A stretch of DNA of 64,000 nucleotides from an uncultured Acidobacteriaceae bacterium (lineage in GTDB: Bacteria > Acidobacteriota > Terriglobia > Terriglobales > Acidobacteriaceae): positions 3,522 to 67,521 of the forward strand of contig CAVWYS010000005.1 of NCBI GenBank assembly GCA_963759285.1, written 5' to 3'. The notes beneath the pieces are model-generated. The model was not told where the DNA came from, made no database searches, and saw only the letters and a program-made list of their open reading frames with translations. The position numbers and the translations under genes are program-made. Positions 1,418 through 57,723 of this stretch are shown here, in pieces; within the stretch, counting starts at the first letter, position 1; every line of letters starts with the position of its first letter.

Positions 1418-1474
1418 AGGGCACGACTTTAGCCGTGCCGTAACCGCCAGAAAACATCAGAGGGCCTTTAGCCT
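1418..1474. repeat. Twin-hairpin REP-like element (family T), degenerate copy
   Basis: GCACGAC-TTTA-GCCGTGC, ~20-nt spacer, GGGCC-TTTA-GCC. Same layout as 8731-8794, 42061-42124 and 52389-52451. Confidence 0.7.
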
Positions 1475-1480
1475 TGCGCA

Positions 1481-2626
1481 CTAACGATCCTCCAGCGCAA
1501 GTACCGCATAGCTCGTCGCCGCATCGCTCATAAACATCCCTGCATCCGATTTCGGATCGCGGTTCTTGTTTAGCGACCACGCCGGCCACGCTCCGGTGTT
1601 TTTATCCTGATTGGCTTCAAGCCATGCAAGGCCACGCGCTACGTGCGGCTTCTTGTCCCCTGTTACCAGGCTCTCTTCAAGCACGAGCACCGCAAGTCCC
1701 GTCGCGTACCCATCCGATCGCGTTTCCAGCGGCGTGCCGTCCCGGCGCTTCCATGTCCCAAGATCCGTCAAACTCCAGCCCCCGTCCGGGTGCTGCAGCG
1801 CGTCCACTTGATCCACAAGCGCACGCATCTGGTCCAGCGTCAACAGGCCGGGAACATACTTCGCAGCCCACAACGCGACCATCTTGTTCACCAGTGGCTG
1901 TGCATCGTAGTGGCTCTGCAGATAGCCGCGCAACAAGGCCACGTTCGCCGAAATCTTCTTGTCGTTCCTGTACCCCTCGGGTGCGCTCCCCACTGCCATC
2001 GCCATCAACGCGGCCCAATGGTACTGCGATTCCTTTGACTCCCAGGGAGTGTAATCGAAGTTCTGCCAAACCCACGCGCCCGCATCCGGCCCAGACTTCG
2101 ACTGCAGTTCCCATGCATTGTCGAACGCCATCCGCGTCCGTTCGCTCAGATGCTCCTTCGGCGCGTCGTAACAAGCAAGAATGATGGCATTCAGCACGGC
2201 CTCCGCATTGCGCGACTCCACTTCCTTTCCCGCGCCGGAAACCGCATCGCTGTAGAAAGGCTGCACAATCTTCCAGTCGCGAACCCGCTTCTCCACGCTC
2301 GCCAGCATCACGAGCTCCTGCTCTGAAGGTTCACGCTCGCCCGATCGGCCGCGCAGCACTGGGCGTGCCATCGCGTAAGTCGCCTGCGTATGGCAACTCA
2401 CGCACAGCGTGCCATGATCCTTTTGCGCACGCTTCCACCCTTGCCACCACGTCTCTCTGCTATCGAGATACTGCGTAGCAGCCGCAGGATTCCAGCCAGG
2501 AGCCGTAACCGCGGGCTTGTCTGAAGCCTGCACATTCCCTCCCGGCACACGCATCACGCAGACACAGAACGCAACGCTCGCCGCGGCGACCAGCCTGGCC
2601 CCACCCCGCAGGAGTTTGTTTGTCAT
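1481..2626 (-). CDS. Exported prenyltransferase/squalene-oxidase-repeat (alpha/alpha barrel) protein with a CxxCH motif
   Basis: Signal-peptide-like N-terminus, QW-like motifs (LQHPDGGW, NQDKNTGAW), CVSCHT; no DXDD cyclase motif seen. Confidence 0.6.
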   Translation of the reverse strand: MTNKLLRGGARLVAAASVAFCVCVMRVPGGNVQASDKPAVTAPGWNPAAATQYLDSRETWWQGWKRAQKDHGTLCVSCHTQATYAMARPVLRGRSGEREPSEQELVMLASVEKRVRDWKIVQPFYSDAVSGAGKEVESRNAEAVLNAIILACYDAPKEHLSERTRMAFDNAWELQSKSGPDAGAWVWQNFDYTPWESKESQYHWAALMAMAVGSAPEGYRNDKKISANVALLRGYLQSHYDAQPLVNKMVALWAAKYVPGLLTLDQMRALVDQVDALQHPDGGWSLTDLGTWKRRDGTPLETRSDGYATGLAVLVLEESLVTGDKKPHVARGLAWLEANQDKNTGAWPAWSLNKNRDPKSDAGMFMSDAATSYAVLALEDR

Positions 2627-2804
2627 GCTCTCGACCTCCGAATCATTACCCTGACCGTTCCGCTTCGGACGCTTCTACTGCCAGCATACGTCGGCCCGTT
2701 CCAACGCCGCATAACTTTCCACAACCCTCCGCGGTTCAAAGGATGTTCCTTCACCGTTAACCGCGATCCTGCAAATGCACAGGCTCGCGCGTTATCCTCA
2801 CTGC

Positions 2805-3776
2805 ATGGTGCGGTTCACGGTACTGGCGTCGGGATCTAAGGGTAACTGCACGGTTGTCACCGGCGGCAATACCCGAATCCTGGTTGATGCCGGCCTTAGC
2901 TGCCGCGAACTCTTCCGGCGCATGCGCCTGGTCGATGAAGATCCCGCCACGCTCGATGCAATCATCATCACCCACGAGCACTCCGACCACGTTGCAGGCC
3001 TTGCCGTCACCGCCCGCAAACTTGGCATCCCGGTCTACTTCACCGAGGGCACACACCGCGCCTGGGTACGTTGGCTTTCGCCCCGCAAGCAGATGACCTA
3101 CACGCAATGGTTGGAGCAATGCCGCAAACAGGCCGCAGCGCGCATGGCCGAAGCCGATGCTGTCACATTGGAAGAATGCGATCCAGAAGACGTCGAATCA
3201 TGCGCGGATCCGGCACCCGCCGAAATCCCTGAGCCGACTCCAGTAAAAGCTGCCCCCGCAAAAGATCCTACCGCGCTGCCTTCACTCCAGTATTTCCAGG
3301 CTGGCAAGCCGCTCCAGATCGGCGACATCTCCGTCAGCCCGTTCACGATTCCCCATGACGCTGCGGACCCCGTCGGCTTCGTGTTCCAGGCAGAAGGCGT
3401 CCGCATGGCCGTCGCAACCGACCTCGGCTACATACCTCCCAACGTCAAAGCCCAGCTGAAGAGGGTTGATCTTCTGCTCCTTGAGTCCAATCACGACCTG
3501 GAGATGCTCCGCGACGGCCCCTACCCCTGGTCAGTCAAACAACGCGTCCTATCCCGCGTTGGCCACCTCTCCAACGAGGCCGCCGCCACTTTCCTCGAAT
3601 CCGAGTACGACGGTCAAGCCTCCTACGTCATCCTTGGGCATCTCTCTGAAAGCAATAACCTTCCCGAGCTTGCGCGCATTGCAGCCGAGCGTGCCCTCAA
3701 CGGACGAGCCAGTTTGTTAGCAAACCGGCTGTTGCTGGCAGAGCAACATGAACCCATGTCAACTATTTGTTTTTGA
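2805..3776 (+). CDS. MBL-fold metallo-hydrolase, YycJ/WalJ-like, with an acidic/Pro-rich insertion
   Basis: VLASGSKGN, LVDAG, THEHSDH, PHDAADP, TDLG, LESNHD, GHLSN, LGHLSESNN. Start moved to ATG 2805. Confidence 0.85.
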   Translation: MVRFTVLASGSKGNCTVVTGGNTRILVDAGLSCRELFRRMRLVDEDPATLDAIIITHEHSDHVAGLAVTARKLGIPVYFTEGTHRAWVRWLSPRKQMTYTQWLEQCRKQAAARMAEADAVTLEECDPEDVESCADPAPAEIPEPTPVKAAPAKDPTALPSLQYFQAGKPLQIGDISVSPFTIPHDAADPVGFVFQAEGVRMAVATDLGYIPPNVKAQLKRVDLLLLESNHDLEMLRDGPYPWSVKQRVLSRVGHLSNEAAATFLESEYDGQASYVILGHLSESNNLPELARIAAERALNGRASLLANRLLLAEQHEPMSTICF

Positions 3777-3988
3777 TGAAACTCGATTACAATCGTAAGA
3801 GGGAGTAATGGGCCCTTGCTGAGGGTTCCTCCTAATCTCTGCGACGTAAGTTTTGTCTTATCAGAAGGCTTTTAGTAATCCTGCATCATTCGGTACCCGT
3901 AAGGCATCCAATGGTGCGAACGGTTTTCGCGTTCTCCCGTGCAAAGCGCGACAACTTCCAGAATCTGCACAGAGCGAGTCTGAAGTCT

Positions 3989-4471
3989 ATGGCGAAAACT
4001 CCATGTACCGACCGCGTTGTGGGCGCTATTCTTGCCAGCTGGCGGTATGACATCTCAGGGATTTCCCCAGAAATGCGCAGGGATTATGAGCAGCATTTCG
4101 CGGATTGCAGCCGCTGCCGCGCTCGCCTCAAATTCCACCGCAGTCTCGACGTATCTCTCGTGGTTCTCACGTCTCTGTCGGTTTTCTTCTCCCTCTTTGC
4201 GCTCGCAGTCCTAAAGCACATCAAGCCACTGGAGCACGTAGCATTTAACGTGCTTGGTCTCGACAAGTTCGATACTTATCACATGCTGGTGTCAGCGGCG
4301 GTCGCCGGAGTCTGCTTCTCGGTAATTGCGTTTGTGTTGGTGCTCACCGCAACTCCCGTCCCGTCGTATCTTGGAGGAATCGCCGCCGAACGCGCCCGCA
4401 TCCTCGAACAGCGGCTACCTGAGGCCTTCGAACGCCTCCCCAACGCCATCAAATCCCTGCGTCCCCGCTAA
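3989..4471 (+). CDS. Membrane protein with an N-terminal zinc-finger-like (HxxxCxxC, zf-HC2-like) motif and two TM helices
   Basis: EQHFADCSRCR followed by two hydrophobic stretches; start at ATG 3989 within ORF 3911..4471. Confidence 0.6.
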   Translation: MAKTPCTDRVVGAILASWRYDISGISPEMRRDYEQHFADCSRCRARLKFHRSLDVSLVVLTSLSVFFSLFALAVLKHIKPLEHVAFNVLGLDKFDTYHMLVSAAVAGVCFSVIAFVLVLTATPVPSYLGGIAAERARILEQRLPEAFERLPNAIKSLRPR

Positions 4472-4494
4472 ACCGACCCCCGCTCCAAAATCAA

Positions 4495-4525
4495 AATGCC
4501 TCCCAAGCGGGAGGCATTCTCTTTT
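4495..4525. terminator. Intrinsic terminator, probably bidirectional, between convergent genes
   Basis: AATGCCTCCC-AAGC-GGGAGGCATT perfect 10-bp stem, CTCTTTT on the 3' side and AAAA on the 5' side. Confidence 0.75.
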
Positions 4526-4535
4526 AGGGCCCCCT

Positions 4536-6975: not shown

Positions 6976-7003
6976 CTCTGCAGACTGATCTCAAGCGCCA
7001 AGA

Positions 7004-8617: not shown

Positions 8618-8730
8618 GAAGAAGATACCTCGTAATCGAGCGATTTACTTGATATCAGGATAAATGCTCGACATCTCCCGCCGCGTGGCACCCATCACAT
8701 CGCGGCACACAATGCAGAACCGAACACGGA

Positions 8731-8794
8731 GGGAGCAGCAGCCTTCAGGCTGCTTGACCGCATTCGCAGAGAGCGCCAGGCCTTTAGGCCTGGA
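8731..8794. repeat. Twin-hairpin REP-like element (family T)
   Basis: AGCAGCC-TTCA-GGCTGCT (8737-8754) and CCAGGCC-TTTA-GGCCTGG (8776-8793), both perfect 7-bp stems. Confidence 0.8.
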
Positions 8795-8821
8795 TTTTTG
8801 ATGTAATTGCCACAACCCAGG

Positions 8822-8919
8822 GTCTTGTCACCAAGCAGGAGTTGGCATCAAGCGACAGTTGGCATAAAGCGGGTCTTGTCATCAAGCGGCAGTTGTCATA
8901 AAGCGGGAGTATCAGGCGG
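8822..8919 (+). repeat. Degenerate 17-bp tandem repeat (5 full units + 1 partial) abutting a REP left end
   Basis: gtcttgtcaccaagcag / gagttggcatcaagcga / cagttggcataaagcgg / gtcttgtcatcaagcgg / cagttgtcataaagcgg / gagtatcaggcgg. Confidence 0.85.
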
Positions 8920-8923
8920 GAGT

Positions 8924-8980
8924 TGTCATCTTGAGCGGACCCTGAGTACAGCGAAGGGGGAGTCGAAAGATCTGCGGTTG
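8924..8980 (+). repeat. TGTCAT-type REP-like element (family G)
   Basis: TGTCATCTTGAGCGG...GTCGAAAGATCTGCGGTTG; shares ends with 16841, 16976, 28460, 47518 and 57660. Confidence 0.75.
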
Positions 8981-9030
8981 TCTTTGTGAATTTGCGGTGA
9001 GCACAAATGCCAATACTTCCGGTCAGGCGG

Positions 9031-9429
9031 TCACTCGCCCGCGATCAATACCAGCGGCAAGGCATCCTCAGAAAGAAAGAAGTGGCCCGGGTAAAACTCA
9101 ACATGCAGGTGATTCCGCGTCTGACGAACTTTCTCTGCTTGCGCATCCACAAGCCATTCGATATTCGCTGAAAAGAGGTCTAGTTTCTCCCTTGCACCGC
9201 ATATAAACAGCTGCTGGTCCGCTTCCCATATCCTTAGCAAGTTCGGCTCAACCGTAATAACCAACTCTTTGAGGTAGCGAAGCCCACGCTCGTCGGTACG
9301 GGCTGGAACCAACAACGGGATGCGGCGAAGACTCTCACATCCCTTTATGACTCGGGCCAGTTCCATTAAATCTGTTCGAGTTCCTTCGACTTCAACACCG
9401 GAACTGTCAAAAAGAGCAAATAGCATCAC
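9031..9429 (-). CDS. Hypothetical protein, loosely resembling polymorphic-toxin immunity proteins
   Basis: 132-aa ORF, lower GC than neighbours, C-terminal HLHVEFYPGHFFL motif; family call is from memory only. Confidence 0.5.
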   Translation of the reverse strand: MMLFALFDSSGVEVEGTRTDLMELARVIKGCESLRRIPLLVPARTDERGLRYLKELVITVEPNLLRIWEADQQLFICGAREKLDLFSANIEWLVDAQAEKVRQTRNHLHVEFYPGHFFLSEDALPLVLIAGE

Positions 9430-15894: not shown

Positions 15895-16752
15895 GTGGCA
15901 GATAAATACGCGATCGTCGTCGTCGGAGCAGGAACTATGGGCTCGGGGATTGCCCATGTTTTTGCCGGGTCCGGCTTTCAAGTCACGCTTTGCGACGTTG
16001 AGCAGCGATTTCTCGACCGAGCCCTCGCCTCCATCCGCACCAACCTCGGTCGCGAGGCCGCTAAAGGCAAGCTCCCTGCATCCGAAATCGAGCCAACCCT
16101 CAACCGCATCCGCACCACCGTCAACATGGAATCCCTCTCCGGCGCAGAGATCGCCGTTGAAGCCGCCCCGGAACGCCTCGATCTGAAATCCGAAATCTTT
16201 CGAGCTCTCGACCGCATCCTGCCCGCGCATGCAATCCTCGCCACAAACACCTCGTCGATCTCGATCACGAAAATGGCCGCGCTCACCCGTCGCCCCGCGC
16301 AAGTCATCGGCATGCACTTCTTCAATCCTGTCCCCGTCATGGCTCTCGTCGAAGTAGTCCGCGGCATGGCAACCAGTGACGCCACCTTCGCCGCGGTCCG
16401 CGACCTCGCCGTAAAACTCGGCAAGACGCCCGTCGAGGTCAATGATGCCCCAGGCTTTGTATCCAACCGCGTCCTGATGCCCCTGATCAACGAAGCCGCC
16501 TACGCCGTCATGGAAGGCGTCGCCACCCCTGAAGCCATCGACCAGGTCTTTAAGCTCGGCATGGCGCACCCCATGGGCCCCCTCACCCTCGCCGACTTCA
16601 TCGGCATCGATGTCTGCGTCGATATTCTGCGCGTCCTCCAGGATGGCTTCGGCGACCCCAAATACCGCCCCTGTCCGCTCCTCGTCCGCATGGTCGACGC
16701 CGGATGGCTCGGCCGCAAATCGGGCCGCGGCTTCTTCACCTACGCCAAATAG
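15895..16752 (+). CDS. hbd: 3-hydroxybutyryl-CoA / 3-hydroxyacyl-CoA dehydrogenase
   Basis: VVGAGTMGSGIA, VEAAPE, LATNTSSISIT, GMHFFNPVPVM, PGFVSNR, HPMGPLTLADFIGIDV, GWLGRKSGRGF. Confidence 0.93.
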   Translation: MADKYAIVVVGAGTMGSGIAHVFAGSGFQVTLCDVEQRFLDRALASIRTNLGREAAKGKLPASEIEPTLNRIRTTVNMESLSGAEIAVEAAPERLDLKSEIFRALDRILPAHAILATNTSSISITKMAALTRRPAQVIGMHFFNPVPVMALVEVVRGMATSDATFAAVRDLAVKLGKTPVEVNDAPGFVSNRVLMPLINEAAYAVMEGVATPEAIDQVFKLGMAHPMGPLTLADFIGIDVCVDILRVLQDGFGDPKYRPCPLLVRMVDAGWLGRKSGRGFFTYAK

Positions 16753-16800
16753 CAATGACGACTCCCGACCAACTCGCCTCGGCACTGCCCTTCCTGCTCA

Positions 16801-17023
16801 GCACCGTCATCTCAAATAACACTGTCATCTCAATCAGCACTGTCATTCCGAGCGACCAACGGGAGCCGAGGAACCTGCAGTTGCTCTTCGCCTCACTGCC
16901 ACACCCTCTGGGTGCCCCATCCATTCGGATGCTTTTGCCGAATGGGTGGGAAACCACGAGCCTAACCATCTCCACTGTCATTCCGAGCGACCAACGGGAG
17001 CCGAGGAACCTGCAGTTGCTCTT
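16801..17023 (+). repeat. BIME-like composite: two 18-bp stutter units, REP-G (16838-16888), REP-P (16910-16958), identical REP-G (16973-17023)
   Basis: Two identical 51-bp copies of CACTGTCATTCCGAGCGACCAACGGGAGCCGAGGAACCTGCAGTTGCTCTT flank GGTGCCCCATCCATTCGG-ATGCTTTTG-CCGAATGGGTGGGA. Confidence 0.9.
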
Positions 17024-17090
17024 TTAGCGCAGCATCAAACACGTTGAACCAGCATTCGACTTTCGCACCACCCTCACAAGGAGATTCAAC

Positions 17091-18236
17091 ATGCGCGCGA
17101 CCAATAAAATGGCAACACCTTGCATTCACCTTGCCCTCTTCGCATGTTTGCTCGCATCTCCCGGATCGGCCCAAACTCCCTCACCGCAGCAATCTCCGCG
17201 CCCCGCCTTCCCCATCCGCGATACCCACACCCCCGGCTACGTCTCCGCCACCCAGCTTCCCGACGGAGCCGTTCCTTCGCCCTCTGCCGACGGCAACTTC
17301 ATCATCGGCCCCACTCATCCCCCCGCGCCTGAAACCACCACGCCCGAACTCACCAACGGCTCCGTCGTCGAATTCACCATGAACTCCGCCGACAGCAAGT
17401 ACTACCCCGGCATCGCCCGCGACAAAGGCACCTTCGGCACTCCCGACCCCACCGACCCCGCCAGGCTCATCATCACCACGAGCCACCCGGCCCCCTACAC
17501 CCGCAAAGTCGCTGTGTATGTCCCCAGGGAATACGTCCCCGGCAGCGAAGCCCCTTTCATCGTCGGAGCCGACGGCCCCGACCGCATGCTCTTCACCGCA
17601 CTCGACAGCCTCATCGCCGAACACAAGCTCCCCGTCATGATCGCTATCTCCATCGGCAATGGCAGCGGCGATGCCCAGGGTAGCGAACGCGGCCTCGAAT
17701 ACGACACCATGTCCGGCAAGTACGCCGAGTTCGTCGAAAACGAGGTCCTGCCCCGCGTCGAATCCGAGGCCCACGTCAAGGTCACCCACAATCCCGATGG
17801 CCGTGCCACCATGGGCGGCAGCTCCGGTGGATCCTGCGCGCTCATCATGGCCTGGTACCACCCCGAGCTCTATCACCGCGTCCTCACCTACTCCGGAACC
17901 TACGTCAACCAGCAATGGCCCTACGACGCGAACACTCCCCATGGCGCATGGGAATTCCACGAACACCTGATTCCCCAAAGCAAACGCAAGCCGATCCGCC
18001 TCTGGATGGAAGTCGGCGATCGCGATCTCTACAATCCCAACGTCATGCGCGACAACATGCACGACTGGGTCGAAGCCAACGAGCGCATGGCCAAAGTGCT
18101 CGCCGCAAAAAAGTATCACTACCAGTTCGTCTTCGCTGAGAACGCGGGCCACGTCGATCACGCCGTCAAAGCCCAGACCCTCCCCGAAGCCCTCGAATAC
18201 CTCTGGCAAGACTACAAACCTCTGCACAAGAATTGA
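17091..18236 (+). CDS. Exported esterase, enterochelin-esterase-like alpha/beta hydrolase
   Basis: Signal peptide; VAVYVP; RGLEYDTMS; GGSSGG nucleophile elbow; ENAGHVD. Confidence 0.8.
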   Translation: MRATNKMATPCIHLALFACLLASPGSAQTPSPQQSPRPAFPIRDTHTPGYVSATQLPDGAVPSPSADGNFIIGPTHPPAPETTTPELTNGSVVEFTMNSADSKYYPGIARDKGTFGTPDPTDPARLIITTSHPAPYTRKVAVYVPREYVPGSEAPFIVGADGPDRMLFTALDSLIAEHKLPVMIAISIGNGSGDAQGSERGLEYDTMSGKYAEFVENEVLPRVESEAHVKVTHNPDGRATMGGSSGGSCALIMAWYHPELYHRVLTYSGTYVNQQWPYDANTPHGAWEFHEHLIPQSKRKPIRLWMEVGDRDLYNPNVMRDNMHDWVEANERMAKVLAAKKYHYQFVFAENAGHVDHAVKAQTLPEALEYLWQDYKPLHKN

Positions 18237-28458: not shown

Positions 28459-28503
28459 CTGTCATTCCGACCGACCAACGGGAGCGGAGGAACCTGCAGT
28501 TGC
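28459..28503 (+). repeat. REP-G copy
   Basis: CTGTCATTCCGACCGACCAACGGGAGCGGAGGAACCTGCAGTTGC; 2 compensatory-looking differences from the 16838 copy. Confidence 0.9.
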
Positions 28504-28581
28504 CTTTCCTCGGTCAAGCAGAAAAAGCCACACAAAAACGCAGAATCCCTAACCTTCGAGTTCGGCACACAACTGACCGAC

Positions 28582-31666: not shown

Positions 31667-34384
31667 TCACGCCGGCTGCAGCTCCTTCTTCGCGTCGGGC
31701 TTCTCCAGCACCGGTCCATGCGTCTCAACGGTCGGCGGCGCGGGTGCATCGCCAATCCGCTTGGAGTAGTGGCATACGATTGCAGCGCCGGGTTCAGGTT
31801 CAGCGATCTTCTTGCCGCGCTTCTTGGGCTTAACCTCTTCTTCCGCCCCCTTCTTCTTGTTGGGACACTCGAGGAAGATACCGCTCTTGAGCGTCTTCTC
31901 CACAAGGTACGCGTTGCCGCACTCCGGGCACTTCTGCGCCACCGGCTTGTAGTTCGAGGTAAAGTCGCACTTCGGATAATTGGTGCAACCCCAGAAAATG
32001 TTGCCCCGCCGCGCCTTGCGCTCGGCAATGTCCCCTTCGCCGCACTTGGGACACTTCATCCCCTCAATCAGGTTCTGCTTGATGTACTTGCACTTCGGAT
32101 ATCCCGAGCACGACACAAACTCGCCGTACGCCCCCTGCCGCAGCACCAGCGGCTTGCCGCAAACTGGGCAAGCTTCCCCCGTGGGCTCAGGGGGCTTCTG
32201 CTGCTGCTTCTGGCTCAGCTTGCGGATCGTCTTGCACGGCGGATCCTCGTTGTACCCCGGGCAGCTCATGAAAGGTCCGAATGGGCCCCGGCGCAGCACC
32301 ATCACGCGTCCGCAGTTCTCGCAATATTCTTCCGTGTCGCCGGCTTCCTGCGCCTCGGGCGTATTCATATCCGGCTTGGCTGCGATGTTCTCTTTTGTAA
32401 ATGTGCAGCTCGTCGGGTCCTTTTTGTTGTAGGCAGAACATGCATAAAAACTGCCGAATTTACCCCACTTCAGCAGCAGCGGCGATCCGCAAACATCGCA
32501 CTTCTCCGTCGTCTTCTGCTCCATGCGCTTGATGTCGCGCATAGTCTTGCTCGCATCCTTGAGCTCATCTTCGAAGTGGTCGTAGAAACCGTTCAGCAGA
32601 TCGGTCCACTTCTCCTTGCCCTCTTCAATATCGTCCAGTTCCTCTTCCAGCTTCGCTGTGTACTTGGTATCGAAGATATACGGAAAGCTCTCCACCAGAA
32701 GATCGCAGACCACCATCCCGATCTCGGTCGGATAAAAGCGTCCGCGCGAGCCGCCATGTTTCACCACGTACTCGCGATCCTGAATCGTGTTGATGATCGA
32801 CGCATACGTCGAAGGCCGCCCGATGCCCCGCTCTTCCAACTCCTTCACTAGCGACGCTTCGTTGTAGCGCGGCGGCGGTTCGGTAAAGTGCTCCTCGGGC
32901 AGAAGCTCCTCCAGTTCCAGTCCCTTTACGCCGTCCAGATTCGGCAGTTTGTTCGCCAGCGAGTCTTCGTCGTCGTCAGCCTTCTTCTCTTCCGTAACTT
33001 CGTACACCTTGAGAAAACCGTCAAAGCGTAGCACGGAGCCGCTCAGGCGGAAATCGTAAGTCTTGCCATTCAGCGCGGATTTCGCCTCAATCTTCGCTGT
33101 CGTCACATCGTAGACCGCAGGCACCATCTGCGAAGCAATGAAGCGTCTCCAGATCAGCGTGTACAGCTTCAATTGTTCATCGCTGAGATAGCGCGCCATC
33201 GATTCCGGCGTCCGCGAAGCATCCGTCGGCCGAATCGCCTCGTGAGCATCCTGCGCATCCTTCTTGCCCTTGTATGCGTTGGGCGTCTCCGGCAGATACT
33301 GCTTGCCGAGTTCCTTGGCGATCCAGGCTCGCGCACTCTCCTTCGCGTCAGGCGATACACGCGGTGAGTCGGTACGCATATATGTAATCAGACCCGTCGT
33401 GCCCTCATCGCCGATGTCGATGCCTTCGTACAGCCGCTGCGCAACGCCCATCGTCCGGCGAACGTTAAAGCCCAGCTTGCTGGCCGCATCGCGCTGCAGC
33501 TGGCTGGTGATAAAGGGTGCAAGCGGGCGCCTCTGCTGCTCGCGATATTGCACGGATGCAAGCGTCCACGTCGCCTTCTCAAGCGCAGCGAGAGCCGTAT
33601 CCATCGACTTCTTGTCGGGCAGCGCGCTCCCGATAAATTGATCCTTGCCGTCCTTGTCCTTGCCGTTGGGTACGCGTGCGGCCTCACCATCGATGCCAAC
33701 AAACTTGGCCTTGAAGTTCTTGTCCGACTGGCGCAACAACGGGGTACCCGCGGACCTGTTCATGTCTGCGGGGTGTAATTGTGCTTCCAGCGTCCAATAT
33801 TCAACCGGCTTGAACCCCGCAATCTCGCGTTCACGTTCCACGATGAGCCGCACCGCAACCGTTTGCACCCGGCCCGCAGAAAGACCTCGCCGCACCTTGT
33901 CCCACAGCAGCGGAGAAATCTGGTACCCCACAAGCCGGTCGAGAACCCGCCGAGTCTGCTGCGCGTCCACAAGATTCTCGTCAATGTCGCGGGCGTGCTT
34001 GAATGCTTCCTGCACGGCCTTCTTGGTGATCTCGTTGAACGTCACGCGGCGAATCTTCTTGCGTTCCTTGGCATTGGTGCCAAGCTGCAGAGCAAGATGC
34101 GCGGCAATCGCTTCCCCTTCCCGGTCAGGGTCAGGCGCAAGGAAGATCTCATCCGCCTTCAGCCCGGCCTTCTTTAATTGATCGACAACTTTCTCTTTAC
34201 CCGGCGAAACTACCAGCTCGGGTACAAACGTGCGGTTCTTTAGTTCCACGCCAATGTCATTCTTGGGCAAATCCATAATGTGCCCGATTGACGCGCGGAC
34301 CTCGAAACCTTTGCCTAGATACTTTTCGATCGTCTTCGCCTTCGCAGGAGATTCGACGATCACGAGTGATTTGGTCATTTCCAT
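31667..34384 (-). CDS. topA: DNA topoisomerase I (type IA) with C-terminal zinc ribbons
   Basis: LVIVESPAKAKTI, APDPDREGEAIA, SAGRVQT, LITYMRTDS (catalytic Tyr), GIGRPSTYA, repeated CxxC..CS.YP.C ribbons. Confidence 0.98.
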   Translation of the reverse strand: MEMTKSLVIVESPAKAKTIEKYLGKGFEVRASIGHIMDLPKNDIGVELKNRTFVPELVVSPGKEKVVDQLKKAGLKADEIFLAPDPDREGEAIAAHLALQLGTNAKERKKIRRVTFNEITKKAVQEAFKHARDIDENLVDAQQTRRVLDRLVGYQISPLLWDKVRRGLSAGRVQTVAVRLIVEREREIAGFKPVEYWTLEAQLHPADMNRSAGTPLLRQSDKNFKAKFVGIDGEAARVPNGKDKDGKDQFIGSALPDKKSMDTALAALEKATWTLASVQYREQQRRPLAPFITSQLQRDAASKLGFNVRRTMGVAQRLYEGIDIGDEGTTGLITYMRTDSPRVSPDAKESARAWIAKELGKQYLPETPNAYKGKKDAQDAHEAIRPTDASRTPESMARYLSDEQLKLYTLIWRRFIASQMVPAVYDVTTAKIEAKSALNGKTYDFRLSGSVLRFDGFLKVYEVTEEKKADDDEDSLANKLPNLDGVKGLELEELLPEEHFTEPPPRYNEASLVKELEERGIGRPSTYASIINTIQDREYVVKHGGSRGRFYPTEIGMVVCDLLVESFPYIFDTKYTAKLEEELDDIEEGKEKWTDLLNGFYDHFEDELKDASKTMRDIKRMEQKTTEKCDVCGSPLLLKWGKFGSFYACSAYNKKDPTSCTFTKENIAAKPDMNTPEAQEAGDTEEYCENCGRVMVLRRGPFGPFMSCPGYNEDPPCKTIRKLSQKQQQKPPEPTGEACPVCGKPLVLRQGAYGEFVSCSGYPKCKYIKQNLIEGMKCPKCGEGDIAERKARRGNIFWGCTNYPKCDFTSNYKPVAQKCPECGNAYLVEKTLKSGIFLECPNKKKGAEEEVKPKKRGKKIAEPEPGAAIVCHYSKRIGDAPAPPTVETHGPVLEKPDAKKELQPA
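33740..33776. repeat. Intragenic REP-like hairpin module, in frame within topA
   Basis: CGGGGTA-CCCGCGGAC-CTGTTCAT-GTCTGCGGG-GTG; 9-bp stem, 8-nt loop, same flanks as the inner module at 57676-57708. Confidence 0.65.
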
Positions 34385-38016: not shown

Positions 38017-38345
38017 TGCATTTCTCCTTGCGGCACGAGGTCCGGCAACACCGGCTCGCACTCATCACTGCTGCTGATCTCTGGTTTGCCCGCGCTGTTT
38101 CCCAGGCTCCGCCTCAACCAAAGGATAGAAGCGCCCGCGGCGCCAAAAAAGTACCGGGTGACCTACTGCGCCCGTACTAGCCCGTTACCGTTGCTTCCTT
38201 CCGGACCTGGCGGGATTGGCGGGATTACGTCGCGTAGGACCCGGCACTGACTGATTTTATCACCTTGGACGGTAGTCATCTGCACCGCAAAAGGTGCAGC
38301 GGCCGAATCAGATGATTGCAGCCGCTGCGGTGATCAGGGAATCAG

Positions 38346-41584: not shown

Positions 41585-43177
41585 GTGAGCAAAAGTTCCC
41601 AACCCACGGCTCCCACCGTGGGCTTTGTTTCGTTAGGCTGCCCCAAGAATCTGGTCGACTCCGAAGTGATGATGGGGTTGCTGGACCGCGGTGGGGCGCG
41701 CCTGACTTCCCACCCCGAAGAGGCCGATATCCTCGTCGTCAATACCTGCAGCTTTATCGACACCGCCAAGCAGGAATCCGTGGACACCATCCTCGAAATG
41801 GCGCGCTTCAAAACCTCGGGCTCCGCCAAAAAGCTAATCGTCGCCGGTTGCCTCGTTGAGCGCTACCGCGACGAAATTCGCAAAAGTATTCCCGAAGTCG
41901 ATGCCGTCGTGGGTACAGGGGAGCTCGAATCAATTCTTGAGGCAGCAGGGATTGCTCCATCGCATTCCACCGCCCCCTCGCCCTTCAACATCCTCACCGC
42001 AAACAGCCACGCTGAGGTCCGCGCCGGACAAGAGTCTCTGTCGGGAAGCCACAAAGTGTCAGGGCGCGACTTCAGTCGTGCTGAAACAACGGCACAAATG
42101 ACGGGGGCTTTAGCCCCTGAGGGAAACTTCCGCCCTGAAGGCAATCTCCGCGAACAGCAAGGCCGCTTCAGCCGCGAAGACTGGCATGGCGCAGCGCACA
42201 TGCTGCCGACCTACCTCTATAACGAAAACACTCCGCGTTACATCTCGACCGGCAGAACATCGGCCTACATCAAGATCGCTGAGGGTTGCGACCATCCCTG
42301 CACCTTCTGCGTCATTCCCAATCTGCGCGGCAAGTTTCGCTCCCGCCGCTTCGAGTCCGTTGTGGCGGAAGCACAACAACTGGTCGCCGCCGGCGTACAG
42401 GAAATCACCCTCATCGGCCAGGACACGACCTGCTACGGCGAAGACCTGGGCATCAAAGACGGCCTGGCTACTCTGCTCGATTCCCTCGCCGGAATCCAAG
42501 GCCTGCGCTGGCTCCGCTTCCTGTATGCGTATCCCAATCGCATCACCGGCAAACTTCTCGACACCATCGCGAAGCACGATAACATTTGCAAATATCTCGA
42601 CGTGCCCCTGCAACACGCTTCACCCGACGTGCTCAAGCGAATGAAGCGTGGGGCCGGTGCCGACATTTTCCTCAAAACGCTCGAAAAAGTCCGCGCAATC
42701 GTGCCCGGAATAGCACTGCGCACTTCCTTTATCGTCGGTTTCCCCGGAGAGTCCTCCGTCGACTATGAAGTTTTGGAGCAGTTCATCAGCCACGCAAAAT
42801 TCGACTGGCTCGGCGTGTTCAATTACTCCGACGAAGAAGGTTCGAAAGCCCACGTACTCGACGCCAAGCTTCCAAAGCGCACCATCGAGTCCCGTAAGCG
42901 CAAGCTGATGAAGTTGCAGCAAAGGATCTCAAAGCGCGCCAAGCAGCAGTGGGTCGGTCGCGAACTCGTAGTTCTCGCCGAAGGCGAAAGCGAAGAGACT
43001 CCGCTACTTTGGGAAGGCCGTACCGAATTCCACGCTCCGGAAATCGACGGCAAGGTCTACATCAACGACTTCGGCGATCTTCAAGCCTTGGAAGCCGGAA
43101 AATTCTACCGCGCCCAGATCACCGAGGCCCATGACTACGACCTCGTCGCACGAATCATGTCGGGACCCCTTTCCTGA
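41585..43177 (+). CDS. rimO: Ribosomal protein S12 methylthiotransferase RimO, with an internal insertion
   Basis: VSLGCPKNLVDSE, NTCSFI, VAGCL, radical SAM CDHPCTFC, QDTTCYG, C-terminal TRAM-like GRTEFHAPEIDG; start GTG 41585. Confidence 0.97.
   Translation: MSKSSQPTAPTVGFVSLGCPKNLVDSEVMMGLLDRGGARLTSHPEEADILVVNTCSFIDTAKQESVDTILEMARFKTSGSAKKLIVAGCLVERYRDEIRKSIPEVDAVVGTGELESILEAAGIAPSHSTAPSPFNILTANSHAEVRAGQESLSGSHKVSGRDFSRAETTAQMTGALAPEGNFRPEGNLREQQGRFSREDWHGAAHMLPTYLYNENTPRYISTGRTSAYIKIAEGCDHPCTFCVIPNLRGKFRSRRFESVVAEAQQLVAAGVQEITLIGQDTTCYGEDLGIKDGLATLLDSLAGIQGLRWLRFLYAYPNRITGKLLDTIAKHDNICKYLDVPLQHASPDVLKRMKRGAGADIFLKTLEKVRAIVPGIALRTSFIVGFPGESSVDYEVLEQFISHAKFDWLGVFNYSDEEGSKAHVLDAKLPKRTIESRKRKLMKLQQRISKRAKQQWVGRELVVLAEGESEETPLLWEGRTEFHAPEIDGKVYINDFGDLQALEAGKFYRAQITEAHDYDLVARIMSGPLS
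42059..42124. repeat. Intragenic twin-hairpin REP-like element (family T), in frame within rimO
   Basis: GCGCGAC-TTCA-GTCGTGC ... GGGGC-TTTA-GCCCC; translated as SGRDFSRAETTAQMTGALAPEG. Confidence 0.8.
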
Positions 43178-47517: not shown

Positions 47518-47612
47518 GTCATTCTGAGCGAACGTGCCCCCAAACGTACCAGGGCCCCGAAGAGCGATTAGCTCTCCGGGGTAGGTTCGGGGGTGGTGGA
47601 CGAAGAATCTGC
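47518..47612 (+). repeat. REP-G with nested hairpin modules
   Basis: TGTCATTCTGAGCGAA-[CGTGCCCCCAAAC-[GGGCCCCGAAGAGC-GATTA-GCTCTCCGGGGT]-AGGTTCGGGGGTGG]-TGGACGAAGAATCTG. Confidence 0.8.
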
Positions 47613-52370: not shown

Positions 52371-52388
52371 ACTTCATGCAATGATTCG

Positions 52389-52451
52389 GAGGGAGCAGTG
52401 GCCTTCAGGCCACTGGATACCAACAATTAAGTTTCTGGCATTTAGGCCCGG
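52389..52451. repeat. Twin-hairpin REP-like element (family T)
   Basis: GAGGGAG-CAGTGGCC-TTCA-GGCCACTG (perfect 8 bp) ... GGCA-TTTA-GGCCCGG; same 5' flank as 8731. Confidence 0.75.
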
Positions 52452-52473
52452 TTTCTAGTTCCCGACTCAAGCT

Positions 52474-52515
52474 TGAGTGCCCCCGATCCCTCTTGGGGAC
52501 CGCGGATACGAGTCA
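52474..52515. repeat. Degenerate REP-P-like element
   Basis: GAGTGCCCCCGATCCCTCTTGGGGACCGCGGATACGA resembles the GGTGCCCC...GGGA.ACGA element at 16910. Confidence 0.4.
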
Positions 52516-52522
52516 GGGACGA

Positions 52523-52852: not shown

Positions 52853-52918
52853 ACCGATTAAATAGCGCTATCCTAACTGTTCTCTGTTCACTGTCCACTG
52901 ATCACTGTCCACTTGCCC

Positions 52919-54100
52919 TTACGCCAATGTCTGCACTTCAACCGACAGCACCGCCGGCAGATCGTGCACAATCGCGTTCCACGAGTCGCCGCCATCCGGC
53001 GACACATACACCTGTCCGCCCGTGGTGCCGAAGTACACGCCGCACGTATCCAGCTTGTCCACAGCCATCGCGTCGCGCAGCACATTCACGTAGCAATCTT
53101 TCTCCGGAAGCCCTTTGGCAAGTTCCTCCCACTCGTTGCCGCCGGTTTTGCTGCGATACACGCGAAGTTTCCCATCGAGCGGAAAATGCTCCGAGTCGCT
53201 CTTGATCGGCACCACGTAAACCGTCTCCGGCTCATTCGAATTGATGTCAATCACAAATCCGAAATCGGTCGGCAGGTTGCCGCTGATCTTCGTCCAGTTA
53301 TCGCCCGCATCGTCTGAACGCATTACGTCCCAGTGCTTCTGCATGAAAAGCGTTCCGGGCCGTGCGGGATTCATCGCGATGTGATGAACGCAGTGCCCGA
53401 CGTCTGCCATCGGATTAGGAATGTACTTCGAATACAGTCCCTTATTGATCGGCTTCCACGAATTACCGCCATCATCGGTGCGAAACGCCCCCGCCGCCGA
53501 AATAGCAATGTATATCCGTTCGGCATTGCTCGGGTCGAGGATGATCGAATGCAGACACATCCCACCCGCGCCCGGCTGCCAGTCAGGGCCGGTGCCATGT
53601 CCGCGCAGCCCCGGCATTTCGTGCCAACTCTCCCCGCCGTCGATCGAACGGAAAATGGCCGCGTCTTCCACGCCCGCGTATACCGTCTTCGCGTCCGTAA
53701 GCGAAGGCTCCACATGCCACACCCGCTTGAACTCCCATGGCTTCTGCGTGCCGTCGTACCACTGGTGCGTTGTCAGCGGCTTGCCGGTTGCGTCCGAAGA
53801 GTCGTACACGAAGCGATTGCTTTTCACGGGCGGCCACTGCGGTGGACCTTCTTGCGGCTTCACGCCAGGCTGAAACCACGTCTTGCCCCCATCCGTCGAT
53901 GCCTGAAATAGCTGGCCAAACCATCCGCTAGTCTGCGAAACGTAGATGCGTTCCGGATCCACTGGCGAGCCCTTCATGTGGTAGATCTCCCACCCCGCAA
54001 AGAAGGGTCCGTTGACGTCCCATTTGTCTCGCTTTCCGTCCGACGAAAGAATAAAAGCGCCTTTCTTCGTACCAACCAATACACGAACCTGACTCATCAT
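52919..54100 (-). CDS. BNR/Asp-box repeat beta-propeller (sialidase-like fold, function unknown)
   Basis: [10 protein letters not shown]; Asp-boxes [48 protein letters not shown]; no signal peptide. Confidence 0.85.
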
Positions 54101-54238
54101 TTTCCTCCCCCGCGCGTTAAACATCTGGGAATCCGCGGGCCGCTTCGAGATTCTTCCTCAATCACGCACGTCAGTTCAAGTCAAAACTGTGCAAATGTTT
54201 TGAGCCGGTCGATCTTCGAGAGGAAGCGGCAAGCTGAA

Positions 54239-56458
54239 TCAGGGTTGCCAAGTGACGTTGATACCACCCACTCCAATGACCGGGATCGCATACGCGTGGT
54301 TCATCCCACCTTCCCAGGTTAACGATCCATTCGCCTGCAGAATAAAAAATTTGAATTCCGCCCTCACCCCCGCCGGAACTGAGACCGTAAGGAGCGCATT
54401 GCCACCAGACGGAATCACCGCCGGCCCATCGGCACCATCCCACGTCGTCGACCAGTTGCCCAGTTCAGTCACGCTGCCCGTGAGCATCACCGCATCTCCG
54501 GCGCCGAGCGCAGGTACACCGGTCACGAAGAAATTGACGGGGACAAGCTTCCCCGTGCTCACAATGAAAGGAGCCCGATTGGAAGCCGATACACCTCGAC
54601 CGACGATCACCTCAACCGGTCCCGCTCGGACGGATGGTACGTCCGCAGTGATCACGCCATCGGCCCAATTCGCCACTTTCGCGGGCACCTTCAGGCCGCC
54701 CGCCACAAAGGTCACACGTCCTGCCGCGCTTCCAAACCCCATCCCCGCGATCGTCACCGGTGCACCCGCATTCGCCACGCGCGGTGTAATGCTCCCGATC
54801 GCCGGCCCGGTCCCGCCTGCCGCGACCCAGATCGACACGCTTCGATGCGGTAGCGTGAAATTCGCTGTGGCGTCGTTCTCTCCCCCTGTCCCGGTCACCG
54901 TAAGCCCGAGCCCACCCAGCGTTCCCTTCAGGTAGTCGTTAAACTTCCCCGGCGCGAGCGAAGTCAGCAGACCGCTGATCTCCTGGTCATTCGTCTCGCT
55001 CTTGTTGATGGCCACCAGCACCACATTCCCGCCCAGCCTGCGCTCGTAGATGTACACATCGTCGTTGATCCAGCGTTGTTGCATCGTTCCATAGGCGATC
55101 GCAGGATTTGATGCCCGCAGCGCCGCCAGGTACCGGATCAGCGTCACCGCATCCGTCGTCCCGAAGCTTGTCATCGCGTTGCGATCGTAGGGATCGTTAC
55201 CGCCGCCGGTATCGTTGTGCAGATACTGCTCGTCGCCGTAATACACCACCGGCACACCCCTGCACGTGAAAATAAAGCTCAACGCAAGCTTCACCGCCAT
55301 TGCATCCGAGCCCATCGACTGGATCCGTGGATTGTCATGGTTGTCAAAAAATGTAACCAGGTCGTTCGGCTGCGCGAAACCCTCAGCACTCGCATTGCCA
55401 AGCCGCTCAAGATTCAATTCATCGTCAATCTCTTTGAAGCTTTTACCTTTCGCAAACACATCCACAATCGGCCCATACAGCGGATAGTCCAGCAGGTTCA
55501 TTCCGCTGCGATTCGAGAACTTCACCGAATCCGCATACAACGGATCGCCCGACCCCTCCAGCCACTCGCCAAATACAAACGGCCGTACCATTGCAGTCGG
55601 AAGCGTATCCGCACCGCTCCAGTTTGCAATCGAATTCTCCAGGCTATATTCCCATCCCCAGTTCACGTGCTTCACCGCATCGAACCGAAACCCATCCGCT
55701 CCGTGCGCCAGCAACTGCGCAACCGCCGCCTTGATGTATTTATCCACCCATGGATTTGTCTGATCCAGATCGGCCAACCCAAACAACGTGTCGTACTGCA
55801 ACTGGTACCGATCTTCGAAATCCGTCATGTTTGGCGTGTGATGGTAGTACGGAGTGGCCCCCGTGTCGCTCGAATAGTCCGTCACCTTCGCTCCGTTGTT
55901 GTAGAGTGCGCCATTCTCGCCTACACCAATGTCATTGGTATGGTTCGCAACAAAATCAACAATCACTTTGATCCCATTCGCGTGCGCCGTCGCCGTCAGC
56001 TCGTCGAACGCCTCCCAACTATTCGCCGCATCCCCAAAGTGTTCTTCGATCCGCATCATGTCGCGCGGCCAATATCCGTGATATCCAGAAGCCCCTCCGC
56101 CGTCCGGCTTGTTCGCATTATCGATCGGCGGAGAAATCCATATCGCCGCCACGCCCATCGATTTCAGATACGCCATCTTCCGCGTAATGCCCGCCAGATC
56201 GCCTCCCCAGTAGTCGCGCCAGTTCGTCGGCTTCGCAAATCCATGGGCATCGAACTCCCCCGCACTCTGCGGTGGATTATCGTTATTCGCATCCCCGTTA
56301 AAGAACCGGTCCGTCACAATCTGGTAAATAAATCCCTGGTGAATGTCATGCACCGTCGGAATTGGCGGCGCTCCGGGCGGATTCTGCGCAATCACCCGCG
56401 ATGTCGATGCGATCAAAAGGATGACGGCAATCAGACCGGCGCTTTTCATCTTCAGCAT
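54239..56458 (-). CDS. Exported GH13 enzyme with CGTase/maltogenic-amylase architecture (catalytic + C + TIG + CBM20)
   Basis: IYQIVTDRF, WGGDLAGI, YHGYW, FRFDAVKH, FGEW, FFDNHD; TIG-like VTIAGMGFG; CBM20-like TGSVTELGNW...EFKF...TWEGG.NH. Confidence 0.88.
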   Translation of the reverse strand: MLKMKSAGLIAVILLIASTSRVIAQNPPGAPPIPTVHDIHQGFIYQIVTDRFFNGDANNDNPPQSAGEFDAHGFAKPTNWRDYWGGDLAGITRKMAYLKSMGVAAIWISPPIDNANKPDGGGASGYHGYWPRDMMRIEEHFGDAANSWEAFDELTATAHANGIKVIVDFVANHTNDIGVGENGALYNNGAKVTDYSSDTGATPYYHHTPNMTDFEDRYQLQYDTLFGLADLDQTNPWVDKYIKAAVAQLLAHGADGFRFDAVKHVNWGWEYSLENSIANWSGADTLPTAMVRPFVFGEWLEGSGDPLYADSVKFSNRSGMNLLDYPLYGPIVDVFAKGKSFKEIDDELNLERLGNASAEGFAQPNDLVTFFDNHDNPRIQSMGSDAMAVKLALSFIFTCRGVPVVYYGDEQYLHNDTGGGNDPYDRNAMTSFGTTDAVTLIRYLAALRASNPAIAYGTMQQRWINDDVYIYERRLGGNVVLVAINKSETNDQEISGLLTSLAPGKFNDYLKGTLGGLGLTVTGTGGENDATANFTLPHRSVSIWVAAGGTGPAIGSITPRVANAGAPVTIAGMGFGSAAGRVTFVAGGLKVPAKVANWADGVITADVPSVRAGPVEVIVGRGVSASNRAPFIVSTGKLVPVNFFVTGVPALGAGDAVMLTGSVTELGNWSTTWDGADGPAVIPSGGNALLTVSVPAGVRAEFKFFILQANGSLTWEGGMNHAYAIPVIGVGGINVTWQP

Positions 56459-56618
56459 GGATCTCTCCTGGACCAGCAGAACCGCACCCCTGAGTCCCCC
56501 AACATCCTAGTGCACAACGCCATGAGCGCACGCATCGCCGCGAACACATGCCCTCTCTCCGTGCCCCATTCGCTCCAAACTCCGCAATGCTCTAGACTCA
56601 AGACTGGAACCCTACGCG

Positions 56619-57623
56619 ATGATTACGCTATTTACCGGCTACGACGAAGAACCGAAAGACAAAAAGAAAGAGCAGGAAGGCCAGGCCGCCGAAGAGGAGT
56701 CGCCTCAGAAGTCGGGATTCTTCTCGCGCATGCGCCAAGCCGTTGCGCGTACCCGCGAGACGTTTTCGACCCGCATCAACGACATCGTTGCCCTTGCCCG
56801 CGATGTCGACGAGTCCTCTCTCGAGGAGCTTGAGACCGCGCTGATCATGAGCGACATCGGCGTCCAGACCACCAACGAAATCATCCAGGCTCTCCGCGAG
56901 CGCGCCCGCAAACAGGCTATCGCCGGCGGCGAAGAACTCCGCGACTTGCTGAAAGCGCAACTCCGCGGAATTCTCGAAGCCCCGATGCGGCCCGTCATCA
57001 CACCCGCCACTCCGCCCAAAGTCAGCTTCCTCGTCGGCGTCAACGGAACCGGCAAAACCACCACCAGCGGCAAGCTCGCCGCATGGTATCGCGCGCAGCA
57101 GAAATCCGTCCTCCTCTGTGCCGCCGATACCTTCCGCGCCGCGGCTATCGAACAGCTCGAAGTCTGGGCTGGGCGCAGCGGCGTCGAAATGATCAAGACC
57201 CGCCAGGGAGGCGACCCCGCCGCCGTGCTTTACGACGCAGCCAGCGCCGCCAAAACCCGCAACATCGACGAACTCATCGTTGACACCGCCGGACGCCTCC
57301 ACACCAAGTCCGGCCTCATGGACGAACTCGACAAGATGCGCCGCACCGCTTCGAAGCTCGTCCCTGGCGCTCCCCACGAAGTCCTCCTCGTCATGGATGC
57401 CACCACCGGCCAGAACGGCCTTCAGCAGGCGCGCCAGTTCACGCAGTCAGCCGGAGCCACCGGAATCGTCCTCACCAAGCTCGACGGCACCGCAAAAGGC
57501 GGCATCGCCGTAGCCATCGCCCGCGAACTCAATCTCCCAGTAAGATTCGTAGGCGTCGGTGAGCAGATGGGCGACCTGCTCGAATTCTCCCCCGAAGCCT
57601 TCGTAGACGCGCTTCTGGGTTAG
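56619..57623 (+). CDS. ftsY: Signal recognition particle receptor FtsY
   Basis: GVNGTGKTTT, ADTFRAAAIEQL, DTAGRLHTK, DATTGQNG, TKLDGTAKGG, GVGEQMGDL. Confidence 0.97.
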   Translation: MITLFTGYDEEPKDKKKEQEGQAAEEESPQKSGFFSRMRQAVARTRETFSTRINDIVALARDVDESSLEELETALIMSDIGVQTTNEIIQALRERARKQAIAGGEELRDLLKAQLRGILEAPMRPVITPATPPKVSFLVGVNGTGKTTTSGKLAAWYRAQQKSVLLCAADTFRAAAIEQLEVWAGRSGVEMIKTRQGGDPAAVLYDAASAAKTRNIDELIVDTAGRLHTKSGLMDELDKMRRTASKLVPGAPHEVLLVMDATTGQNGLQQARQFTQSAGATGIVLTKLDGTAKGGIAVAIARELNLPVRFVGVGEQMGDLLEFSPEAFVDALLG

Positions 57624-57659
57624 TAATCGCACGAAATACACACTTCCACAATTCGCGGG

Positions 57660-57723
57660 TGTCATCCTGAGCGCACGGGGCCCCAAGCGCACTTCAGCTT
57701 GGGGGTGGTAACCGAAGGATCTG
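57660..57723 (+). repeat. REP-G with a nested CCCC..GGGG hairpin module
   Basis: TGTCATCCTGAGCGCA-CGGGG-CCCCAAGC-GCACTTCA-GCTTGGGG-GTGG-TAACCGAAGGATCTG. Confidence 0.85.

Follow-up and report, generated by a model that had tools for sequence, protein, structure and literature searches.

Probable REP-type hairpin families with a common strand polarity, nesting and in-frame genic copies in the genome of an uncultured Acidobacteriaceae bacterium

Background

How do short palindromes come to lie not only between the genes of a bacterial chromosome but also within one another and, in frame, within the genes of conserved enzymes? This question is raised by a stretch of 64,000 nucleotides from an uncultured, soil-dwelling Acidobacteriaceae bacterium (hereafter, the window; C5:3522-67521, that is, part of contig C5 of an eight-contig genome of 5.6 Mb with 58% G+C), in which a sequence-only reading had noticed four kinds of hairpin repeats, denoted here G, P, T and H, and had proposed that they form a modular, protein-invading system of repetitive extragenic palindromic (REP) elements. 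REP elements that come with genes for REP-associated tyrosine transposases of the HUH-Y1 type (RAYTs) are reportedly described by Nunvar in 2010, and Ogata et al. in 2000 are said to have reported Rickettsia palindromic elements (RPEs) that lie in frame in conserved protein genes.

When examining the genome as a whole, we observed that all four kinds of repeats recur as families, that approximately 90% of their copies have the same orientation relative to the sign of the GC skew, that they nest in one another and interrupt several genes in frame, and that inverted copies of P flank RAYT genes. It is probable, therefore, that the genome harbors at least four families of REP-type, non-autonomous hairpins, with P being the partner of the RAYTs, and with G, T and H likely spreading by the same fork-coupled, single-strand route.

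Four hairpin families

All of the sites named in the sequence-only reading are present, and the families are repeated across the 5.6 Mb in modest numbers, from tens to low hundreds of copies per family: approximately 67 of G, at least 160 of P, 62 of T and 34-50 of H. The share of copies that fall within genes ranges from 3% to 16% per family, compared to approximately 83% of the DNA being coding (4,439 genes, 83% coding, according to a crude gene caller). Purely structural scans turned out to be too noisy, with 476 matches for P against 195 in the control and 143 for H against 77, so sequence-anchored definitions of these two families were adopted; in a census of all tetraloop hairpins, T did not stand out.

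The copies of P share a layout in which GGGTGCCCC is followed by a stem of 10-16 bp, a loop, the returning stem and GGGAAAGCACGAAC. There are 193 exact occurrences of the 9-mer head GGGTGCCCC in the genome, nhmmer detects 160 P copies, and words from P rank among the commonest genomic 12-mers. The window contains two copies, the second of which had been assigned to P with a 'perhaps' and is now recognized as a degenerate member of the subtype that is linked to RAYT genes.

16907..16962, plus strand: typical P copy between two G copies (nhmmer match)
52474..52512, plus strand: degenerate member of P, belonging to the CCCCCGGTCCC..GGGGACCGGGG subtype found on either side of RAYT genes

Family T is a unit of 72 positions that reads (TTTGAAA or TGTNTCA)GGGCACGAC-TTYA-GTCGTGCC, approximately 20 A-rich bases, GGGGC-TTTA-GCCCC and TGAGGGA, that is, two hairpins with TTYA loops, and a 72-position hidden Markov model of this unit recovers 62 genomic copies. 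In the alignment of the T hairpins, 90% of the cells are paired and compensatory changes are found at 10 of the 13 pairs, a level that none of 500 shuffles reached. The four window sites ascribed to T (1418, 8731, 42061 and 52389) are all real, with the qualification that those at 8731 and 52389 belong to a smaller sister subtype of the same architecture, which is also found inside the linker region of the rimO gene of a relative (L011). The copy at 42061, in the rimO gene of the genome studied here, is described below together with its host.

1412..1473, plus strand: T copy with two hairpins and TTTAG loops, intergenic between convergent genes (nhmmer match C5:4933-4994, E 4.7e-12)
8727..8793, plus strand: T-like sister subtype, GGAGGGAGCAG-stem-TTCA-stem ... 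CCAGGCC-TTTA-GGCCTGG
52387..52451, plus strand: copy of the T-like sister subtype

In family G, conserved termini, GTCATYCYGAGCG ... CGAAGRRTCTGC, enclose a variable interior and precede a tail that is either T-rich or AGTTGCTCTT. Genome-wide, there are 67 occurrences of the 5' motif, with less than one expected by chance. Of the five pairs that make up the basal stem, one covaries without exception (T-A 31, C-G 30) and another one almost fully (T-A 40, C-G 19, 2 mismatches). The copies fall into length classes of approximately 37, 64 and 95 nt, and in the two longer forms the loop of the short hairpin encloses one H-type hairpin or two of them; a repeated GAGCGA brackets the first nested hairpin. 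All six G copies in the window are on the plus strand, as had been noticed.

8820..8923, plus strand: tandem 17-nt units, each a truncated G left end ('stutter')
8924..8986, plus strand: G copy with basal stem ATCTT/AAGAT
16801..16840, plus strand: partly duplicated G left end (CACTGTCATCTCAATCAG)
16841..16888, plus strand: G copy of the short subtype, 37-nt core and CAGTTGCTCTT tail
16976..17023, plus strand: G copy of the short subtype
28460..28507, plus strand: G copy of the short subtype
47518..47612, plus strand: 95-nt G copy enclosing two H-type hairpins (fold -39 kcal/mol)
57660..57723, plus strand: 64-nt G copy enclosing a single H-type hairpin

The stuttering that had been described as a trait of the system is real at 8820-8923 and at 16801-16840 and is not general, given that it accompanies only 4 of the 67 G copies genome-wide. 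A small open reading frame with an Imm32 immunity-protein domain (9031-9429, minus strand), missed by the crude gene caller, adjoins the stutter array and its G copy. In an exact-pattern scan of 121 Acidobacteriota genomes, the G pattern was not detected beyond the same bacterial family, contrary to the expectation that G would be widespread.

The H module, GGGGYCCC-stem-loop-stem-GGGGT, is stop-free in all six frames and occurs either alone, with a uniform 34-nt core (20 strict copies), or inside G, and is also nested in the loops of P copies. The modular nesting proposed for the window is thus borne out: the G copies at 47518-47612 and 57660-57723 contain H, which stands by itself in topA, and in a relative (G151) a G-like piece is found inside P.

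Linkage of family P to RAYT genes

The mobilizer had been predicted to lie outside the window, and this is indeed the case. The genome has four Y1_Tnp transposase genes. The gene at C4:125729 encodes a full-length RAYT that scores 104 bits against the NCBIfam model REP_Tyr_transpos (NF047646; cut-off 80) and contains the HVHLL and YIHRNP motifs, and those at C6:114529 and C7:1705681 are broken RAYTs, truncated or frameshifted, with scores under the cut-off. Each of the three RAYT genes is preceded by P copies and followed by an inverted one, and the stem subtype of P differs among the RAYT paralogs. Because inverted P copies flank RAYT genes, P qualifies as a REP family in the accepted sense. 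The suggested search for RAYT or IS200-like genes flanked by each of the families thus yielded such genes for P, at three loci, and none for G, T or H.

The linkage extends to related bacteria. In two relatives (G102 and G151), P copies are located 14-750 nt from RAYT genes, again with different stems beside different paralogs. Of the 121 Acidobacteriota genomes, only those of the same bacterial family contain P in abundance, and RAYT homologs were detected in all 7 genomes of this family that were tested (the one in G115 being a weak match, in a genome without P) and in neither of the 2 outside genomes. P and close RAYT homologs are both restricted to the same family.

Both P copies upstream of the intact RAYT gene (C4:125535-125640) end in TCGAAGAATC / TCGAAGAATCAC, which resembles the right end of G, CGAAGAATCTGC; judging from this sequence similarity, these ends might be a weak lead that links G to the RAYT.

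The fourth transposase gene, at C4:574675, is an ordinary IS200-like gene and shows no link to G, P, T or H. It is flanked (C4:574495-575176) by the GC-rich motifs CCCGGAGGG.. and GCCCAGGGTGAAGCGAAGCGAAGCCCTGGG, which recur at approximately five other sites and comprise a separate small family.

Orientation relative to replication

The strand of each element was compared with the sign of the local GC skew, calculated in 20-kb bins with smoothing. In every family, the great majority of the loci are oriented opposite to the skew sign.

G: 58 of 62 scored loci opposite to the skew sign
T: 57 of 62 scored loci opposite to the skew sign
P: 142 of 154 scored loci opposite to the skew sign
H: 39 of 48 scored loci opposite to the skew sign

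After pooling into 306 non-overlapping loci, 295 of which could be scored, 266 are opposite to the skew sign and 29 have the same sign (p 4e-49). All large contigs agree in direction, and the orientation of the elements flips wherever the skew flips; the suggested comparison of strand bias with the replichore thus came out strongly positive. By contrast, 48% of the genes are co-oriented with the skew, and the tRNAs are split 19:25; since neither genes nor tRNAs follow the skew, the direction of transcription cannot produce the polarity. The skew itself is strong (approximately 15%) and can be seen at the third positions of codons in plus-strand and minus-strand genes alike, which marks it as a regional, replication-type asymmetry. 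The polarity of the elements therefore points to a single-strand, replication-coupled spread of all four families.

The assignment of the leading strand is less straightforward. The GC skew switches sign many times within contigs, and this, together with its strength and the lack of bias among genes and tRNAs, suggests many inversions or assembly joins or else an unusual replication architecture. The dnaA gene (C4:537893) is located at a switch from plus to minus skew, and the G-rich strand carries the only rRNA operon, at C4:~875 kb. With no canonical skew switch at dnaA, this gene was dropped as an origin marker, and the orientation of the tRNAs is uninformative for this purpose. Given the position of dnaA at a plus-to-minus switch and the many switches within contigs, the sign of the leading strand is provisional. 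Under the general rule that the leading strand is G-rich, the complement of the forms as written here would provisionally be on the lagging-strand template, which is the template used by the transposases of the IS200/IS605 family.

Independently of the skew, the intergenic copies are underrepresented between divergent genes and overrepresented behind the ends of genes, as is typical of REP elements, 73-82% of them being downstream of a co-oriented gene.

Copies inside protein-coding genes

The sequence-only reading had placed two different modules, in frame, in two housekeeping genes of the window, and both cases are upheld by the comparison with orthologs.

31667..34384, minus strand: topA (DNA topoisomerase I; Pfam Toprim, Topoisom_bac, Zn_ribbon_Top1), host of an H copy
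33741..33774, plus strand: hairpin of the H type, GGGGTACCCGCGGAC-loop-GTCTGCGGGGT, translated in frame from the minus strand as (P)ADMNRSAGTPL, with a net gain of 33 nt (11 aa)
41585..43177, plus strand: rimO (ribosomal protein S12 methylthiotransferase; Pfam UPF0004, Radical_SAM, TRAM_2; best PDB match 4jc0, RimO), host of a T copy
42056..42127, plus strand: in-frame T copy of 72 nt (VSGRDFSRAETTAQMTGALAPEGN) in the inter-domain linker

In topA, exactly these 33 nt are missing from all 29 orthologs compared, 23 from the same genus and 6 other-family ones, and the inserted residues form an unaligned loop relative to the solved structure (PDB 6ozw). In rimO, the 72-nt insertion is located between the UPF0004 and radical-SAM domains, in a linker according to the comparison with PDB 4jc0, and this linker spans approximately 100 residues as opposed to 25 in the RimO of T. 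maritima. Across 23 congeners, the rimO site is either empty or differently filled. It is empty in L020, L021, L023 and L024, and T or P copies different from the present one occupy it in L006, L007, L010, L011 and L022. Congeners thus have either a minimal GTHK-x-RPEGD at this spot or different T copies, the stems of which are compensated; in one congener, the site holds P plus T. Thus, the site has been filled repeatedly or turned over. A third case, outside the window, is the aconitase gene acnA, with a clean 42-nt insertion that is absent from all aligned orthologs including the three closest ones. In-frame invasion of coding sequence by REP-like repeats is therefore established by net gains of 33 nt in topA, 72 nt in rimO and 42 nt in acnA.

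Beyond these, there are approximately 30 further candidate intragenic copies located well inside high-scoring genes, as delineated by the crude gene calls. Pfam confirms all 7 hosts that were scanned, namely, an S9 peptidase, a rhamnosidase, an aconitase, FtsK, UvrC, a CCG-domain oxidoreductase and a penicillin amidase, the domains of which are interrupted or spaced by the elements. The T unit has a single open frame in the sense direction and another in the antisense direction; all 5 genic T copies have the orientation of the host gene, and 4 of the 5 are translated in the same GHDFSRA..GALAP reading. The intragenic copies are thus not limited to the two in the window, those aligned with orthologs are true insertions, and the families are multi-copy, against each of the outcomes that had been named in advance as grounds for abandoning the proposal.

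Two of the hosts contain several elements. The S9 prolyl-oligopeptidase-type gene (C6:239868-242336, minus strand) carries three P copies (aa 111-189) that split the match to the propeller domain and one T copy (aa 563-586). In the alpha-L-rhamnosidase gene (C6:282900-286232, plus strand), H units follow one another in tandem at a spacing of 42 nt and are translated as HPTDKDLSAGTPGL repeats; they are placed between the N-terminal Ig domain and the next domain.

Other repeats and RNAs

The commonest 12-mers of the genome come from tandem heptamer arrays (CACTGTT, CACTGAC, CACTGAT) at approximately 115 intergenic loci, for example, C4:630859 and C7:1747095, and these arrays show only a weak skew bias (73:41). 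Tandem repeats of GGGACATAGGGACA are likewise frequent in the genome. The only RNA in the window that reaches the Rfam gathering score is the RNA of the signal recognition particle (SRP).

38149..38246, minus strand: bacterial small SRP RNA (Rfam RF00169, 69 bits)

Proposed mechanism and alternative explanations

The scenario that we favor is that a RAYT would recognize a single-stranded hairpin and move it at the replication fork, and that this coupling would fix the orientation of each new copy relative to the direction of the fork. New copies would persist chiefly behind genes and within loops of other elements, giving rise to the nested, modular forms of G and P, and only occasionally inside coding sequence. 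Within genes, purifying selection would retain only those copies that have a length divisible by three, are stop-free and lie in a linker or a surface loop, where they would lengthen proteins, TopA, RimO and AcnA among them, by 11-26 residues. We infer that G, T and H are moved by a RAYT in trans because their distribution, nesting and polarity are common with those of P; the identity of the active strand is an inference of the same kind.

Several observations weigh against this scenario. No RAYT or other transposase gene was found to be flanked by G, T or H. None of the four families, P included, contains the GTAG or CGTC foot tag of the described REP superfamilies, the feet being GGGTGCCCC in P, GTCAT in G, GGGCAC in T and GGGGT in H. 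The call of the leading strand rests on the general G-rich-leading rule and a single rRNA operon. Between tandem genes, the sense strand is preferred (30:7 in G, 30:11 in T and 17:4 in H), which hints at an added RNA-level or transcription-linked effect. Furthermore, the orientation bias could stem from strand-specific loss of hairpins instead of oriented insertion. Finally, direct repeats of at least 5 nt, which HUH-Y1 transposition is not known to make, flank 4 of 34 H copies (with the H unit taken to include GG) compared to 0.3 expected; examples are AAAACC in acnA, TTTGGTAC at C6:733805 and (A)GCGAA(G) around H in a G loop.

The direct repeats, along with the makeup of H, which amounts to little more than two terminal inverted repeats, would fit an origin of H, and perhaps of G, as tiny miniature inverted-repeat transposable elements (MITEs) that are mobilized, independently of RAYTs, by a cut-and-paste or copy-in transposase that duplicates a 6-8 bp target. 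However, most H copies lack a duplication, and a tandem array accounts for one of the four cases. Moreover, no transposase with matching ends was found, and the replichore polarity that H has in common with the other families (39 of 48) is unexpected for double-strand cut-and-paste, so we consider this origin unlikely. The placement after gene ends brings to mind a different possibility, namely, that the hairpins are not mobile DNA at all but functional RNA structures (intrinsic terminators, 3'-end stabilizers or small RNAs) selected at these positions. The location of 73-82% of the intergenic copies after a co-oriented gene, the mostly sense-written copies between tandem genes, the CTGCTTTT in which G terminates after its stem, and the covariation of the stems, in which the written strand admits G-U pairs, all are in line with such a role. 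It accounts poorly, though, for the approximately 90% orientation with respect to the skew, unlike that of genes and tRNAs, for the copies that are in frame in genes, nested or flanking RAYT genes, and for a presence that is polymorphic between species. In addition, neither gathering-score nor permissive Rfam scans matched any Rfam family to G, P, T or H, and a scan with E up to 10 around 16700-17100 returned nothing credible. RNA function as the primary explanation thus appears improbable.

The polarity itself could conceivably be a host function, with the repeats serving as an oriented chromosome signal akin to KOPS or Chi, or with hairpins surviving on one template strand only because those on the other are deleted. 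A bias of 90% is comparable to that of known polar motifs, the P head GGGTGCCCC alone is distributed 162:27, and one polarity is common to four unrelated families. Nevertheless, approximately 300 unevenly distributed loci in 5.6 Mb is a low number for a guidance motif, the families are lineage-restricted and variable between congeners, and for P the RAYT association suffices without a host function; we regard this possibility as highly improbable. All of these alternatives, whether RNA function, MITEs of the DDE type, polar motifs or strand-specific loss, fit fewer observations than spread by a RAYT-dependent, fork-coupled route.

A more far-reaching version of fork-coupled spread can be contemplated, which we consider doubtful. 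One single-strand mechanism would spread four unrelated hairpin families in trans and set the approximately 90% polarity, with H, at 36-42 nt, as a minimal coding-compatible element; alternatively, the polarity would itself be functional, as a chromosome-orientation signal. Under the former variant, H would be an element that is stop-free in six frames, has a spacing of 14 codons, can insert into the loops of hairpins as well as into essential genes, and generates target duplications of 6-8 bp, a trait not known from HUH enzymes.

Relation to known systems and implications

RPEs are reported to be palindromes that are in frame in conserved genes and are tolerated as extra surface peptides, and in this respect they resemble the genic copies described here. 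The sequences and the host phylum, however, are unrelated, and the present families are mainly intergenic, nest in one another and include one family with a transposase partner.

The closest parallel is with REP elements, including the bacterial interspersed mosaic elements (BIMEs) and REPINs, that are associated with RAYT (TnpA-REP) genes to form REPtrons in Escherichia, Pseudomonas and Stenotrophomonas (Bertels and Rainey 2011, PMC3116915; Ton-Hoang 2012, PMC3333891). The common features are short imperfect palindromes that number from tens to hundreds and lie for the most part outside genes, on their downstream side; a RAYT gene between inverted copies, in the present case of P only; and stems that are family- and species-specific, with a single-strand mechanism having been proposed for those elements. 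Apart from the missing GTAG/CGTC tag, in place of which P has the head GGGTGCCCC, the differences are that four structurally different families coexist in this genome and that nesting and in-frame genic copies are frequent. Furthermore, the copies in the window and the other copies sampled appear to be mostly singlets or mixed clusters and not the inverted doublets of REPINs. With regard to the polarity of approximately 90%, the REP literature examined proposes coupling of REP spread to the lagging-strand template (PMC3333891) but reports no such polarity.

The orientation bias relative to replication, in this genome 266 against 29 by the sign of the GC skew, is also reminiscent of the single-strand transposition of the IS200/IS605 family, which has miniature derivatives (Ton-Hoang 2010, as represented by its citations in PMC3333891 and PMC6006769). 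Unlike these, the elements described here are single or double hairpins of 35-95 nt without a transposase, no fixed target tetranucleotide and no constant flank beyond the elements' own ends were found for them, flanking repeats exceed chance in H but not in P, T or G, and the sole IS200-like gene of the genome, at C4:574675, has other flanks.

Within the Acidobacteria, Di Nocera et al. (2013) have described a TIRYT or 'TIRtron' group in T. saanensis, K. versatilis, A. capsulatum and G. mallensis, consisting of RAYT-like tyrosine transposases flanked by inverted repeats, with some moderately abundant families (PMC3733652). That report includes no G, T or H, no genic insertions and no polarity, and its supplements contain no sequences matching these families. 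The remark that no description of a modular, protein-invading REP system in Acidobacteria was known needs to be qualified: our literature search found no description of G, T or H, of the genic copies or of the polarity, but RAYT-like genes with inverted repeats had already been reported. Given this precedent, the system is best viewed as a lineage-specific variant of the known REP/RAYT theme. To our knowledge, the coexistence of four modular families, the polarity of single hairpins and the recurrent in-frame landing sites have not been described before.

How RAYTs disseminate REPs is an unsettled problem, and in E. coli and Pseudomonas, where REPs mostly form inverted pairs, the proposed coupling to the lagging-strand template (PMC3333891) is hard to see. 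Families of single hairpins with a polarity of approximately 90%, which gene orientation cannot account for, provide a testable signature of this process. The repeated and species-specific filling of the RimO linker and the clean insertions in topA and acnA offer material for studying how essential enzymes tolerate or exploit new peptide loops. In more practical terms, the repeats create spurious small open reading frames and inflate the variation of protein length in the annotations of Acidobacteria.

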